From a virus (lineage: Duplodnaviria > Caudoviricetes): a DNA stretch of 64,000 nt. The stretch spans positions 1 to 64,000 of IMG/VR virus record IMGVR_UViG_3300033463_000011. One strand, 5' to 3'. Below the pieces are notes generated by a model, which saw only the letters and a list, made by a program, of their open reading frames with translations, made no database searches and had not been told where the DNA came from. The position numbers were made by a program, and so were the translations under genes. Position 1 is the stretch's first letter, and each line of letters opens with the position of its first letter. Shown here piece after piece: positions 10,955-37,592 of the stretch.

Positions 10955-11175
10955 TGGAATGGATAGCAGAACATAACATACCGATAATAGATATTAACTA
11001 TGATACAAAATCTTGTCAGATCAACTATCATGGAAGGACTTACGGCTGCCCGATAAGACAGCATAATGGCGAGTGGTATTTCAGTTTTGACGATAGGTGC
11101 GTCTGGTATCTAGTTAAATAATGTTGAATCGTTATAATAACTGAATATCAATAATCCTAAAGGAGGTAAGATTGT

Positions 11176-30233: not shown

Positions 30234-30433
30234 CTATGAAACGATATATTAAGGCAGAAACGATATCAGTAAATGAATTAAGTAAGGAGCGATTAGAAAA
30301 TATCGTTTCAGAAATAGTTAATGTGATAAACACCCCTCAATTAGGCGAAACTAAACGCATATTGCAGATAATTAGAATTTTAGAATTCTATAATCTGAAA
30401 TAATATATAAATCGTTATATAATTAGTTATAAC

Positions 30434-30493
30434 CGTCGAGTTTTGTATTTTCCTTGACACCCTCGGCGATATAAAATAAAAATAACAGGAGGA
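30434..30493 (+). ncRNA. Putative preQ1-I-like riboswitch (translational)
   Basis: P1 CGUCGAG/CUCGGCG; loop UUCCU pairs with AGGAG of the RBS; A-rich L3; leader of preQ transporter. Confidence 0.65.
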
Positions 30494-30499
30494 ACCATA

Positions 30500-31225
30500 A
30501 TGGGTTCAAAAGTCAAAAGTCTTGTGAACGACTATAAAGTTCTCTTAAGAAGTGTTCCAGCATTAATCACAACTATTTTTGTAGTCGGTACAATTTTGAT
30601 GAATTTGTCAGCCGCAAAAATCATTTTCAATGCTTGGAATGTAGCAGTCACTGGTGGTTTCATTTTAAGTTGGTTACCCTTCTTGTGCATGGATACTGTA
30701 GCAAAGAGGTTTGGTGCGAGAGCAGCTATCTTGCTTAACATCTTATCTGCTGCAGGAAATCTTTTTGCTGTATTATTCCTTGCATTAGTGGCAGTCATCC
30801 CTACTACAGAACCTTATACTGAATTCAATTACATCTTTGGTGCAGTTTGGTTCATTTGTTTAAGCAGCACAGTTGCATTCGTAGTATCTGGTGTAATCAA
30901 TAGTTTAGTAAATGTCGCTGTAGGTAAACTTTTCAAAGGTAAAACAAATATCATTGAATTTTTTACAAGAAGCGCGCTTTCTACATTTGTAGGTCAGGCA
31001 TTAGATAACTTCATTTTTATCGCTGGTGTTTATGTAGTATTTGCTCCGATATTCTGGGGAACAGAACCTCTTCCTATTCTTACATGTGTAGGTACTGCAA
31101 TCTTAGGTGGTCTTATGGAACTCCTATGCGAAGTACTTCTTACACCTCTTGGATACAAAATTGTTAAGGGATGGGAAAAGAACAATGTAGGCGAAGAATA
31201 TCTTAAACTTCATCCTCAGAAGTAA
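30500..31225 (+). CDS. yhhQ: Queuosine precursor transporter (YhhQ/VUT family)
   Basis: About 6 TM helices; FL..D....FG, RS..ST.VGQ.LD; que context. Confidence 0.85.
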   Translation: MGSKVKSLVNDYKVLLRSVPALITTIFVVGTILMNLSAAKIIFNAWNVAVTGGFILSWLPFLCMDTVAKRFGARAAILLNILSAAGNLFAVLFLALVAVIPTTEPYTEFNYIFGAVWFICLSSTVAFVVSGVINSLVNVAVGKLFKGKTNIIEFFTRSALSTFVGQALDNFIFIAGVYVVFAPIFWGTEPLPILTCVGTAILGGLMELLCEVLLTPLGYKIVKGWEKNNVGEEYLKLHPQK

Positions 31226-31233
31226 TTAAATTA

Positions 31234-31348
31234 GAGAGTTTTGTATCAACCTTGAAAGCCTCTCATTAAACAAAAATAACAGGTTACACAATAACACAAA
31301 TCGTTATATAGAGTGTAGCCAACAATTATGGTTACACTCTATCTTTTT
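31234..31348 (+). ncRNA. Putative preQ1-I-like riboswitch (transcriptional) with terminator
   Basis: P1 GAGAG/CUCUC; AACCU/AGGUU pseudoknot; terminator 31308-31348. Confidence 0.65.
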
Positions 31349-31362
31349 ATAAGGAGAAAAAT

Positions 31363-31863
31363 ATGTCCAGAAACGCAGAAGAATTACAAGGAGTAACATT
31401 ACTCGGAAATCAGAACACAAAGTACAAGTATGAATACGACCCAAGTATTCTTGAAACATTCGTAAATAAGAATCCCGATAACGATTACGTTATCACATTT
31501 GATGGATATGAAGGCACAAGTTTGTGTCCTAAGACAGGTCAGCCTGATTTCTTCAAAATGGTTATCAATTATATTGCTAACGAAAAATGTGTAGAATCAA
31601 AGAGTCTTAAGTTGTATCTGTTCAGTTTCCGTAGTACAGGTGAATTTCATGAAGACGTTGTTAACAGAATTGGTAAAGACCTTGTCAAGTTGTTAGACCC
31701 TAAATACCTCGAAGTAAGAGGTATATTCTCTCCAAGAGGTGGCATTGCTATCTATCCGTTCTTCAACTATGTAGGAGATACAAAGTACGAAAGCTTTGCA
31801 ATGCAGCGAAAGCTTGATACAATGCGTGATGCTTGTAACAGAACAGTAAAATATGATATGTAA
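31363..31863 (+). CDS. queF: NADPH-dependent preQ0 reductase, type I
   Basis: [26 protein letters not shown]. Confidence 0.95.
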
Positions 31864-33766: not shown

Positions 33767-33898
33767 ATGCAATTCTACGGAGGTCAGATTATATGTATGC
33801 AAGGTGAAATGAAAATTGATAATCTTAATTTCATATTAGACCTAATAGATGAATATATTGAACTTCTTGAATCTGTAGAAAATAAGCAAGGAGTATAA
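33767..33898 (+). CDS. 43-aa cassette gene inside the que operon
   Basis: Paralog of 1876..2025; flanked by 14-bp direct repeat. Confidence 0.75.
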   Translation: MQFYGGQIICMQGEMKIDNLNFILDLIDEYIELLESVENKQGV

Positions 33899-33900
33899 CA

Positions 33901-34029
33901 ATGGGATATAAGAAATTAGATATACCTAAGGTAGAAGAAGCAGTTAAGAATCTTCTTATAGCATTAGGCGAAGATGTAGAAAGAGAAGGATTAAAAGAAA
34001 CTCCACGAAGAGTAGCAAAGTATTGGTAA
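33901..34029 (+). pseudogene. folE: 5' fragment (42 aa) of a second folE
   Basis: LLIALGEDVEREGLKETPRRVAKYW* is a FolE N-terminus. Confidence 0.85.
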
Positions 34030-34633: not shown

Positions 34634-34664
34634 ATATATCCAATCATATATGCGAGGTGATGAT

Positions 34665-35984
34665 ATGATCCCACTTAACTCTGCTCAAACAGCTGAACTT
34701 GCTGAGTTCTTAGGTCACGATCCATCTATTGATGGAGAATGGTCAATTACTCGTTCGCTTAATAACGGTCCGTGTATATACGCAGTTAATTCAAAGGGTA
34801 CTCTAGTAGTGAGATTAACTTGTATAGACCGTGCAGGTAGGATTCAAAAGCCTAGGTTATCTTCTATACGAGAGTACCCAGATCATTATTTGTTTTGCAA
34901 TTTAAATAATAAAGATATTAGAATGCATCGACTAATGGCCTATGTGTGGTTAGATGATTACGATGAAAATCTAACAGTTAACCATAAAGACGGAAACAAG
35001 CATAATAATGATTACCATAATTTAGAAATGCTGTCAGTCCATGATAACTGCATGCATTATCATCATTCTGATGAAATGTTACAAAAACGTAATCGGGATT
35101 ATGCGTATCATGGAACTCGGATCAAGGGCAGGATTCATATAACTAATGGAGTTGAATCCAAGATGATATACGAATCTGATGGAATTCCAGAAGGATGGTG
35201 GAGAGGTCGTTCAGATAGCGTGAAAAAGAAGTTGTCTGAATCATGCAAAGGGCATTCACCTTCTAATGCAGGTAAGTATTCTATAACTAACGGAATTGCA
35301 GTAAGATATATTTCTCCTGATGAAACTCTCCCTCAAGGATGGTCGAGAGGAGGGATTAACATGTCTGAATCTAAAAAGCAAAATATACGAGATAAAATGA
35401 CTGGAAAGGTGTTTGTTCATAGAGGTAAAGAAAATAAACGTGTATATTCTTATGAATTAGCTTCTTATTTATCCGAAGGTTGGGAATTAGGCATGTATGC
35501 AAAGCAATGGGATAGAACAGATACAGAATATACTGAAGAACGAAGAGAACATATGCGAAAAATAATGACTGGAAGTGGAAACCCTATGTATGGAAAGCAC
35601 TTATCAGAAGAAACAAAAGCTAAGTTGAGTGCTGCAAATAGAAATAGAGTGGTTTCTGCGGAGATAAGAAATAAAATAAGCGAATCTAAAAAAGGATATC
35701 ATCACACAGAAGAAGCTAAACAGAAGATGCGAGATGCTATGAAAGGGCGTGCAGCTAATAACACGGGATATATCTGGATAACTAATGGAAAAGATAATAA
35801 ACAAATTCCTGAAAGTGAATTGAATAAATATCCCGATTATAGGAAAGGCATATCTCGAGAGAAAGTCATACGAGTATTTGTCAACGATGGATATATTAAT
35901 CATAAGATCCCTATTTATGAACTTGATAGCTGGCTATCTCAAGGATATGTTCGAGGGTTATTGAAACATTCGAAAAATTCTTAA
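34665..35984 (+). CDS. HNH homing endonuclease with NUMOD3 and ITNG repeats
   Basis: HRLMA...VNHKDGNKHNN...NLE; NPMYGKHLSEETKAKLS. Confidence 0.85.
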   Translation: MIPLNSAQTAELAEFLGHDPSIDGEWSITRSLNNGPCIYAVNSKGTLVVRLTCIDRAGRIQKPRLSSIREYPDHYLFCNLNNKDIRMHRLMAYVWLDDYDENLTVNHKDGNKHNNDYHNLEMLSVHDNCMHYHHSDEMLQKRNRDYAYHGTRIKGRIHITNGVESKMIYESDGIPEGWWRGRSDSVKKKLSESCKGHSPSNAGKYSITNGIAVRYISPDETLPQGWSRGGINMSESKKQNIRDKMTGKVFVHRGKENKRVYSYELASYLSEGWELGMYAKQWDRTDTEYTEERREHMRKIMTGSGNPMYGKHLSEETKAKLSAANRNRVVSAEIRNKISESKKGYHHTEEAKQKMRDAMKGRAANNTGYIWITNGKDNKQIPESELNKYPDYRKGISREKVIRVFVNDGYINHKIPIYELDSWLSQGYVRGLLKHSKNS

Positions 35985-36113: not shown

Positions 36114-37592
36114 ATGGATAATATTTTTTACTGCTCAGCACTTGAGTTAGGTAATAAAGTAAACAAAGGAGATATTTCTCCTACAGAAATACTAGACGCA
36201 TATGAAAAGCGTATTGAAAAGATTAATCCTAAAATCAATGCTATCGTATATACGAAGTTTGACGAAGCTAGAGAACGAGCACTTGAGTTAGAAGCTCGAT
36301 TAGCAAAAGGCGAATATTGTGGGCCTTTCGCAGGAGTTCCAGTAGGATTAAAAGATTTCTTACCCAGTAAGAAGGGGTGGATATCTACTCACGGAGGTGT
36401 AGCCAGTTTAACTACTATTGATGAGTATGATTCAGAGATATGCAAAGCAATGGAGAAGTTAGGAGCTATTGTAATTGGCAAAACAAATTCACCTGCTTTT
36501 GGATTTAGAGGAACAACAGATAATAAGTTATACGGACCTACATCTACTCCATTTAACATCGAACATAATTCTGGTGGAAGTTCGGGAGGTAGTGCTTCGG
36601 CAGTAGCTGCAGGTATGATGGCAATTGCTGAAGGAGGCGATGCAGGTGGTTCAATCAGAATTCCTGCTGCTTGGTGCGGATGTTTTGGTCACAAACCTTC
36701 TGCTGGATTAGTTCCTAGTGTATGTAGACCCGATGCCTGGACCGCTACTCATCCTTATTGTTGCGGAGGTCCTATTACTAGAACAATAGACGATGCTGCA
36801 TTAGTATTAGCTTCTATGATAAAGTATGATCCGAGAGATCCGATTAGTGTAATGACTCCGCCTAGTTTGATTCAGAATATCTTAGATACTCATGGGATAG
36901 TTAAGAATAGAAAATATAAAATAGCCTATACTATGAATTTTGGTACACTCTTTCCGTATCCAGAACTTCAGATTGCCGAAGCTATAGAGAAAGTAATTAA
37001 TATTTTAGAAGAAAAAGGCAATACTATAAGTAAAGCTAATTTCAAATTCAATTATTCCCGTAAAGAAATTGAAGAAGCTTGGTTGCGTGGTATCAGTATT
37101 GATTCATCTATTGATAATGCTATTGCAAAAGATAATGGATTTGATTTAATCGGATACCATTCAGATGAATTACCTGAAGCATTCATTAAGTGGGATAAGC
37201 TCGCGTTTGAATCTACGATGATGGATTATAGAAAATTTCATGAAATCAGAACAGATATCTTAGATGCACATCTTAGAGTATTTGAAGATTGTGATATTAT
37301 CATTGCTCCAGTTGCTGGATGCATGCCTCCAAAAAATTCTGATAATTATGATACTCAAGGACCCGACCATATTGGAGACATAGAAGTTGATCCTTTAATC
37401 GGATTTTCATACACCTATCTTGAAAATATGATAGGAACTCCTGCAGCATCAGTACCTATTGGACTATCAAAAGATAATTTACCTATTGGGTTACAAATAA
37501 TTGGTAAACGATATCATGATGACGAAGTATTCGCAATCGCAAGACAGATAGAAATGATGATACCTTGGGATTATACTAAAATTCAGATTTAA
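36114..37592 (+). CDS. Amidase-signature family protein
   Basis: P.AGVP..LKD, GGSSGGSA, DAGGSIRIPA, LPIGLQ. Confidence 0.92.
   Translation: MDNIFYCSALELGNKVNKGDISPTEILDAYEKRIEKINPKINAIVYTKFDEARERALELEARLAKGEYCGPFAGVPVGLKDFLPSKKGWISTHGGVASLTTIDEYDSEICKAMEKLGAIVIGKTNSPAFGFRGTTDNKLYGPTSTPFNIEHNSGGSSGGSASAVAAGMMAIAEGGDAGGSIRIPAAWCGCFGHKPSAGLVPSVCRPDAWTATHPYCCGGPITRTIDDAALVLASMIKYDPRDPISVMTPPSLIQNILDTHGIVKNRKYKIAYTMNFGTLFPYPELQIAEAIEKVINILEEKGNTISKANFKFNYSRKEIEEAWLRGISIDSSIDNAIAKDNGFDLIGYHSDELPEAFIKWDKLAFESTMMDYRKFHEIRTDILDAHLRVFEDCDIIIAPVAGCMPPKNSDNYDTQGPDHIGDIEVDPLIGFSYTYLENMIGTPAASVPIGLSKDNLPIGLQIIGKRYHDDEVFAIARQIEMMIPWDYTKIQI

Follow-up and report, generated by a model that had tools for sequence, protein, structure and literature searches.

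Introduction

Three classes of preQ1 riboswitch are known according to a 2024 review, and all three listed there were defined from bacteria (PMC11625349). The binding pocket of class I contains a G-C pair closing P1, an adjacent U in L1, and, before the 3′ strand of P1, a specificity C that follows a U or an A; class II, as far as reported, is confined to Bacillota (chiefly streptococci and lactococci), where it lies upstream of queT (COG4708) alone and works exclusively at the level of translation (PMC11625349). Our literature searches found no fourth preQ1 class and no phage preQ1 riboswitch.

The locus compared here with these systems is a leader RNA located before queF in a Caudoviricetes phage. 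It lies in a window, by which we mean the whole stretch of DNA analysed (64,000 nt, positions 1 to 64,000 of IMG/VR record IMGVR_UViG_3300033463_000011), and coordinates refer to this window unless the 200,233-bp genome is named. The leader was pointed out in a first-pass annotation as the second copy of a riboswitch, with a terminator and an antiterminator attached. Judging from sequence, we consider it fairly likely that this second copy is a functional member of an undescribed, phage-borne and probably preQ1-sensing riboswitch family, and that it acts as a transcriptional OFF switch before queF. What the first-pass annotation had observed was confirmed, and its reading of each element gained support from the comparisons below.

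Two copies of one aptamer before yhhQ and queF

An intact aptamer of 52 nt (copy 2) occupies 31234-31285; this and all other features mapped between 30409 and 31863 are on the + strand. P1 is formed by GAGAG (31234-31238) and CUCUC (31260-31264), encloses a 21-nt loop, and is closed by G31238, which is invariant across the aptamer family; the P1 columns are 99.7-100% paired in the family alignments, with both-side changes in four of the five pairs. The loop consists of L1 (31239-31247, 9 nt), which carries the invariant block UUUUGUA (invariant columns in alignments A2, A8 and A9), the 5′ strand of the pseudoknot P2, AACCU (31248-31252), and L2, UGAAAGC (31253-31259, 7 nt; family consensus UGAMANC, invariant columns). 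Downstream of P1, the A-rich L3 (31265-31280, 16 nt), with the conserved block AAAYAAAAAUAA and invariant A columns, leads to the 3′ strand of P2, AGGUU (31281-31285), which pairs with AACCU in the loop. The core P2 pairs are almost always paired in the family, where register and bases change together. Every invariant family position is retained in copy 2.

Copy 1 of the same aptamer (30434-30497) precedes the transporter gene yhhQ. The 3′ strand of its P2 is the Shine-Dalgarno (SD) sequence AGGAGG (30487-30492) of that gene, and the SD occupies the same position in most relatives. The two copies share the blocks GAGUUUUGUAU, CCUUGA, CCUC, and AAAAAUAACAGG, and all strings and coordinates given by the first-pass annotation were found in the sequence. 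P1 differs on both strands, CGUCGAG/CUCGGCG in copy 1 and GAGAG/CUCUC in copy 2, and the pseudoknot is UUCCU/AGGAG in copy 1, extendable to seven pairs, and AACCU/AGGUU in copy 2, as the first-pass annotation had noted; the pseudoknot core covaries across the family. With the covariance model, copy 2 scored 69.1 bits and copy 1 67.2 bits (E about 1e-10), and they were the sole matches in the 200,233-bp genome. As the conserved-block pattern also matched twice in the window and not at all in 100 shuffles, the two copies exceed what chance would give.

The annotation had further proposed that one aptamer serves two expression platforms in one phage, which agrees with the SD masking seen at copy 1 and the terminator/antiterminator layout at copy 2. 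Copy 1 would use the aptamer to hide the ribosome-binding site of the YhhQ-like transporter. The yhhQ stop codon lies only 8 nt 5′ of P1 of copy 2 (31223-31238), and ribosomes ending yhhQ could transiently hamper the folding of copy 2 and in this way couple both switches.

Relatives of the aptamer in phage and metagenome contigs

Relatives were first found in loci fetched via relatives of QueF and YhhQ, where the same RNA lay before those genes. When viral contigs were scanned with a more degenerate pattern, about 40 true copies emerged; a literal pattern, GTTTTGTAT-4N-CCTTGA, was rejected, as each of its at least 120 loci on viral contigs was a chance match within coding sequence. Model R1, which was derived from 24 sequences and had P1 as its only structure, detected 52 copies, 35 of them distinct, in viral loci and on four 'MAG' contigs. 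An independent scan of metagenomes (gut, rumen, and fermenter samples) produced more than 119 stretches, a lower bound, of which R1 confirmed 67 (62 distinct). Searching with the covariance model gives over 100 distinct relatives on contigs of uncultured phages and from metagenomes, and these form a large family with covarying P1 and pseudoknot that stands almost exclusively before genes for YhhQ-like proteins or QueF.

The RNA of this family is about 55-60 nt long and consists of the hairpin P1, whose loop is base-paired with the 3′ tail in an H-type pseudoknot (P2 of 5-7 bp), with an L1 of 9-12 nt, an L2 of 7 nt, and an L3 of 14-18 nt. In the viral set, P1 was paired in 100% of cells, with changes on both sides in four of five pairs; the pseudoknot columns were 78.8% paired, the four core pairs almost always, and the covariation score was 0.607, compared with 0.227 after shuffling and at most 0.22 with slid partners. 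The 62 distinct metagenome sequences gave closely similar values (99.7% pairing in P1, core pairs of the pseudoknot formed in nearly every case, covariation score 0.584 vs 0.230 shuffled). Several members replace the CCU/AGG pairing altogether (CUCAU/AUGAG, UCUACU/AGUAGA, CCCUU/AAGGG, GCCU/AGGC), so the pseudoknot is not an artefact of complementarity to the SD.

The invariant blocks are G-UUUUGUA, UGAMANC-C, and, in L3, AAAAAUAA. G10-C34, U11, and C33 are invariant in sets of 41 and 62 distinct sequences, and L3 is A-rich. Departures from the main type comprise A′ (UUAUGUA with UGACGUC), subtype B (UUCGUA with ACGAMAUC), in which an inner helix is clearly formed, and form C, which is capped. 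They tentatively point to an inner helix (P1b). Its putative pairs in subtype A (U14-G15-U16 with A28-M29-A30, plus 13 with 32) reach no more than 69.5% pairing, and what speaks for it derives from three A′ variants and from subtype B (UUCGU/ACGAA). A Watson-Crick helix between UUUUGU of L1 and AYAAAA of L3 was considered and dropped, as the A′ variants (UUAUGUA) carry no compensating change in L3. The lengths of P1 and L3 showed no signal of correlation with the noisy parser that was used.

Other phage yhhQ leaders (L134:1026-1089, L304/L305, and L306, about 100 nt 5′ of position 1201) contain a P1, UUC, a short capped inner hairpin, (U)AUC before the 3′ strand of P1, an A-rich tail, and an SD. 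These leaders have no loop-tail pseudoknot and no Rfam match, and may be a related variant in which the anti-SD overlaps the 3′ strand of P1.

Searches of other collections gave few matches. In 50,697 GenBank phage records, BLAST of the aptamer gave no match, and BLAST of the region gave only coding similarity in QueF. A strict pattern scan of 185,579 species genomes yielded 25 stretches, four of them true according to the model. Three of the four are on contigs with homologues of genes of this phage; the contig of the fourth (L248) showed no such homologues. No match was obtained in 150 other genomes from the bacterial family of one such MAG.

Comparison with the known preQ1 classes

No Rfam family accounted for either copy. 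Rfam 15, run at the gathering thresholds and, on 6.4 kb, at E ≤ 10, gave no aptamer match, only noise (snoRNA, caiA, MAT2A). RF00522 (preQ1-I), RF01054 (preQ1-II), and RF02680 (preQ1-III), each used alone at E ≤ 10 on the 200-kb genome, matched neither copy, and neither reached the RF00522 gathering threshold of 39 bits. Slices of 81 nt and 137 nt likewise produced noise, with RF00522 absent.

Class I is the closest in architecture. Shared with it are the H-type pseudoknot, seen here with covarying P1 and P2 and invariant A columns in L3, the G-C pair closing P1 followed by U, the C before the 3′ strand of P1, the A-rich L3, a P2 3′ strand that is either an SD or linked to a terminator (as in B. 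subtilis queC), queuosine-precursor genes downstream, and a predicted OFF switch. By analogy with this class, we infer a pocket at the top of P1, made up of the G-C floor pair, the U that follows the 5′ strand, the C that precedes the 3′ strand, and the A-rich L3; C31259, invariant and directly 5′ of the P1 3′ strand, would be the candidate specificity base, corresponding to C17 of class I (PMC11625349). A companion note had called the RNA preQ1-I-like, which holds for these pocket hallmarks and fails for the class I model.

These likenesses would also be expected if the RNA were a divergent, enlarged subtype of class I (a 'type IV' of preQ1-I) that kept pocket and ligand and acquired long insertions in L1, P2, and L3. 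The topology, the invariant G-C, U, and C, the A-rich L3, and the SD in P2 all correspond to class I elements (PMC11625349). Against this stand the failure of RF00522 even at E ≤ 10, in the genome and in the slices, and the size of the RNA: class I aptamers are about 34 nt with an L1 of 2-3 nt and an L3 of 6-8 nt, dimensions that copy 2 exceeds, as does the rest of the family. The phage RNA also has invariant UUUUGUA in L1 (of which UUGUA is an extra element) and UGAMA in L2 that are without class I counterparts, the candidate specificity C is preceded by C, G, or U and never by A, in contrast to U or A in class I, and the RNA occurs on phage contigs and not in the bacterial genomes searched. 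We regard a class I subtype as possible but on balance unlikely.

Resemblance to the other two classes is more limited. With class II, the phage RNA shares a larger pseudoknot, pairing of the whole SD, an A-rich linker, and a precursor transporter gene downstream, and some members (L137:8858, L307, L384) carry a hairpin just 3′ of the P1 3′ strand, the place of P4 in class II. This hairpin, the counterpart of P4 in the P1-P4 architecture of class II, is however optional and confined to few members; the RF01054 model scored nothing, the genes are of the YhhQ type or queF rather than queT, and transcriptional platforms exist. With class III, it shares the presumed ligand and an association with gut Bacillota; class III differs in its length of about 100 nt and an SD far from the pocket, and RF02680 had zero matches at E ≤ 10 in the genome.

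We file the RNA as a new class or variant of preQ1-type riboswitch outside the existing families, with a putative ligand. It combines what is generally taken to mark a metabolite riboswitch: a conserved aptamer, covarying helices, varied platforms, and genes of one pathway. The chances seem to us about even that it represents a fourth structural class sensing preQ1 or another 7-deazaguanine, found essentially only in large uncultured phages of gut and rumen Bacillota, exerting feedback on the supply of a DNA-hypermodification base and working through three or more platforms: sequestration of the SD, a terminator/antiterminator pair enclosing a nested bypass promoter, and termination coupled to a uORF. 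If it is a distinct phage class, phages would evolve or maintain metabolite sensors of their own, production of the precursor for 7-deazaguanine DNA modification would be feedback-controlled during infection, and this compact RNA of about 55 nt would offer a new scaffold for RNA-ligand recognition and synthetic switches.

Downstream genes and the putative ligand

The gene between the two copies (30500-31225, ending 8 nt before copy 2) encodes a YhhQ-like (Vut_1) transporter for 7-deazaguanine precursors (PF02592, 6.4e-22). Downstream of copy 2, the SD AAGGAG (31351-31356) is followed by queF (31363-31863, 166 aa; Pfam QueF, 2.5e-30), the first gene of queF-queC-queD-queE-folE, and Pfam identified the products of the following genes as QueC (3.3e-52), PTPS (3.9e-27), radical SAM, and GTP cyclohydrolase I (1.6e-60). 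Pfam TGT was not found in the genome; a DpdA-like transglycosylase gene (phrog_887, 3.3e-34) was identified through PHROGs instead, at genome position 73284-74276 outside the window. Judging by what is known of DpdA phages, the pathway probably supplies a 7-deazaguanine, dPreQ1 given the presence of QueF, for DNA modification of the DpdA type.

The family as a whole has the same gene association. Among 33 distinct proteins encoded downstream of family members, 20 are Vut_1/YhhQ-like and 12 are QueF (together 32/33). A locus search from an alignment of seven closer YhhQ proteins gave 46 phage loci encoding YhhQ-like proteins, and the motif lies directly upstream in 34 of them. Many phages share the order motif-yhhQ-motif-queF, and in these both copies are of the SD-masking type.

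This gene context, together with the four pocket-like positions, makes preQ1 the most likely ligand. A riboswitch for another compound (preQ0, queuine, a further 7-deazaguanine intermediate, or a phage-specific derivative) appears distinctly unlikely to us. The precursor transporter and QueF also handle preQ0, the phage has candidates for further tailoring, namely an amidase (36114-37592) and the DpdA-like gene, and the aptamer is unlike known preQ1 aptamers; yet an OFF switch on QueF suits the product preQ1 better than the substrate preQ0, and bacterial preQ1 riboswitches control the same kinds of genes (PMC11625349).

Several other genes near these loci were recorded. The amidase-signature enzyme (PF01425, 6.3e-91) is encoded beside the que cluster, and a gene of this kind also adjoins yhhQ in L245. 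A short-chain dehydrogenase gene is located at genome position 182156-182809, with a homologue between yhhQ and queF in L237 and L251. Two ORFs of 42-43 aa lie between queE and folE (33767-34029), and an HNH/NUMOD3 homing-endonuclease-like gene (34650-35984) is directly 3′ of folE. In some related phages (L138:574-2082; L251:4117-5637, − strand), the riboswitch precedes a gene for a QueF of about 500 aa that includes an intein splicing domain (PF14890).

Terminator, putative antiterminator, and nested promoter motif at copy 2

Copy 2 is followed by an intrinsic terminator (31308-31348), in which 31308-31321 pairs with 31329-31342 to form a 14-bp hairpin (5 G-C) with a 7-nt loop, followed by CTTTTT, a C and five U in the transcript. 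A mechanical terminator scan found it independently. The putative antiterminator 5′ strand, GGUUACAC (31282-31289), overlaps P2 by four bases, recurs in the 3′ arm of the terminator hairpin, and is complementary to GUGUAGCC (31313-31320) in the 5′ arm. Both the terminator and this alternative pairing had been read from the sequence in the first-pass annotation, and both stand. The antiterminator is part of the minimum-energy fold of transcripts ending at 31321-31336 (−18.0 kcal/mol), and the terminator is the minimum-energy fold from 31342 (−27.8 kcal/mol), when its 3′ arm is complete. As isolated stems, the terminator has −19.6 kcal/mol against −9.8 kcal/mol for the antiterminator, a wide gap in stability, and read-through must therefore rely on kinetics; the pseudoknot duplex has about −4.8 kcal/mol. 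The energetics and the platform fit a predicted OFF switch under kinetic control.

The same layout, comprising the aptamer, (A)AGGUUACA, AAUCGUUAUA, a hairpin with a 3′ arm starting GGUUACA, and a U-tract, is present in four other phage contigs (L132=L353, L133=L377, L167=L324, L358). Across the five phages, the terminator stem is 98.5% paired, with compensatory changes on both sides in four pairs at the base of the stem. The antiterminator is 95% paired (at most 37.5% with slid partners) but varies on one side only, so that its backing is conservation and energetics rather than covariation. Terminator/antiterminator platforms of described riboswitches (preQ1-I of B. subtilis queC, purine) resemble this one in that the antiterminator 5′ strand overlaps the last aptamer helix and mimics the terminator 3′ arm, and differ from it in that a phage-type promoter is nested in the antiterminator loop of copy 2, with its −10-like element over the terminator 5′ arm.

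This promoter motif, AAATCGTTATATA (31298-31310), separates the aptamer from the terminator and shows no variation among the five platforms of the copy 2 type. The AAATCGTTA promoter motif lies at 31298, where RAATCGTTA had been noted as a possible bypass, and the −10-like TATATA (31305-31310) overlaps the first bases of the terminator 5′ arm. The core AATCGTTAT has 33 genomic copies, of which 31 are on the + strand; nearly all of them lie between genes, 20-60 nt before an SD and ATG, and the window has 13 copies against 3.5 expected. The 33 copies, as (G/A)AATCGTTAT followed by a TATAAT-like hexamer, include those in the window at 11127, 15768, 29556, 30410, 31299, 36050, 53319, 57448, and 60004, and this combination, which has no obvious −35 element, is probably the main promoter class of the phage. 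As RAATCGTTA matches this general promoter motif, a bypass is plausible, and the nested promoter probably does bypass the switch. The same motif also separates aptamer and terminator in L354, an unrelated member; this recurrence and the invariance in five platforms make the nesting look deliberate.

A further instance of the motif with a perfect TATAAT (30409-30423; predicted start about 30430, four bases before P1) is located 5′ of copy 1 and probably gives rise to the transcripts reaching copy 2. Transcripts starting there would run through yhhQ into copy 2. We infer that without ligand P2 would be open, and that GGUUACAC would pair with GUGUAGCC once the latter had been made, blocking the terminator and letting transcription enter queF-queC-queD-queE-folE. 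With ligand, P2 (AACCU/AGGUU) would tie up GGUU and leave only ACAC for the antiterminator; the 14-bp terminator would form and transcription would stop at 31343-31348. From the usual spacing, the nested promoter would start transcripts at about 31316-31318, inside the terminator 5′ arm; these would lack most of that arm and escape termination, giving a ligand-independent basal supply of queF. Two routes into queF are thereby envisaged, one basal and blind to the ligand and the other a gated read-through from yhhQ, and given the nested promoter much of the queF expression may skip the switch altogether.

A simpler arrangement would be that the hairpin is a plain terminator of the yhhQ transcript placed over a queF promoter, with copy 2 uncoupled from it and either vestigial or serving, for example, to stabilise the 3′ region of yhhQ mRNA. 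The large excess in stability of the terminator over the antiterminator, the lack of compensatory change in the latter, and the promoter between aptamer and terminator would suit such an arrangement. Copy 2, however, keeps all invariant positions and outscores copy 1, GGUUACA follows directly 3′ of the aptamer in five phages, where it overlaps P2 and duplicates the terminator 3′ arm, and L354 has another terminator after a family aptamer, again with the promoter motif between them. We consider an uncoupled copy 2 very improbable and retain the transcriptional OFF switch.

Further platforms and tandem aptamers

Members of the family combine the aptamer with SD sequestration, with terminators, or with uORF-terminator leaders, and some carry it in tandem. 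The family thus provides a natural comparison of several platforms on one aptamer, including the promoter nested in an antiterminator loop. That the pseudoknot is instead bound by a phage or host protein, or is a translational operator that responds to no small molecule, is hardly credible: some conserved leaders are protein-bound, but this RNA is strictly associated with transporter and biosynthesis genes of one metabolite, and its invariant core around the helix junction, several unrelated platforms, and tandem copies are typical of metabolite riboswitches.

The third platform was seen in L378:620-819 (− strand) and L213:2600-2760, and also in L310, L345, L383, L313, L376, L335, and L343. 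The masked SD here serves a uORF of 7-10 codons, the last codons of which overlap the 5′ arm of a terminator; a U-tract and then the real gene follow. This arrangement suggests that translation of the uORF prevents termination.

Tandem aptamers within one leader were found in L126:2746-2985, in L202:4244-4562, and in L354 (− strand, downstream of 1811-1873). In one tandem example, the first aptamer is coupled to a platform of the terminator type, and the SD of queF is masked by the second. L354 pairs one aptamer of subtype A with one of subtype B.
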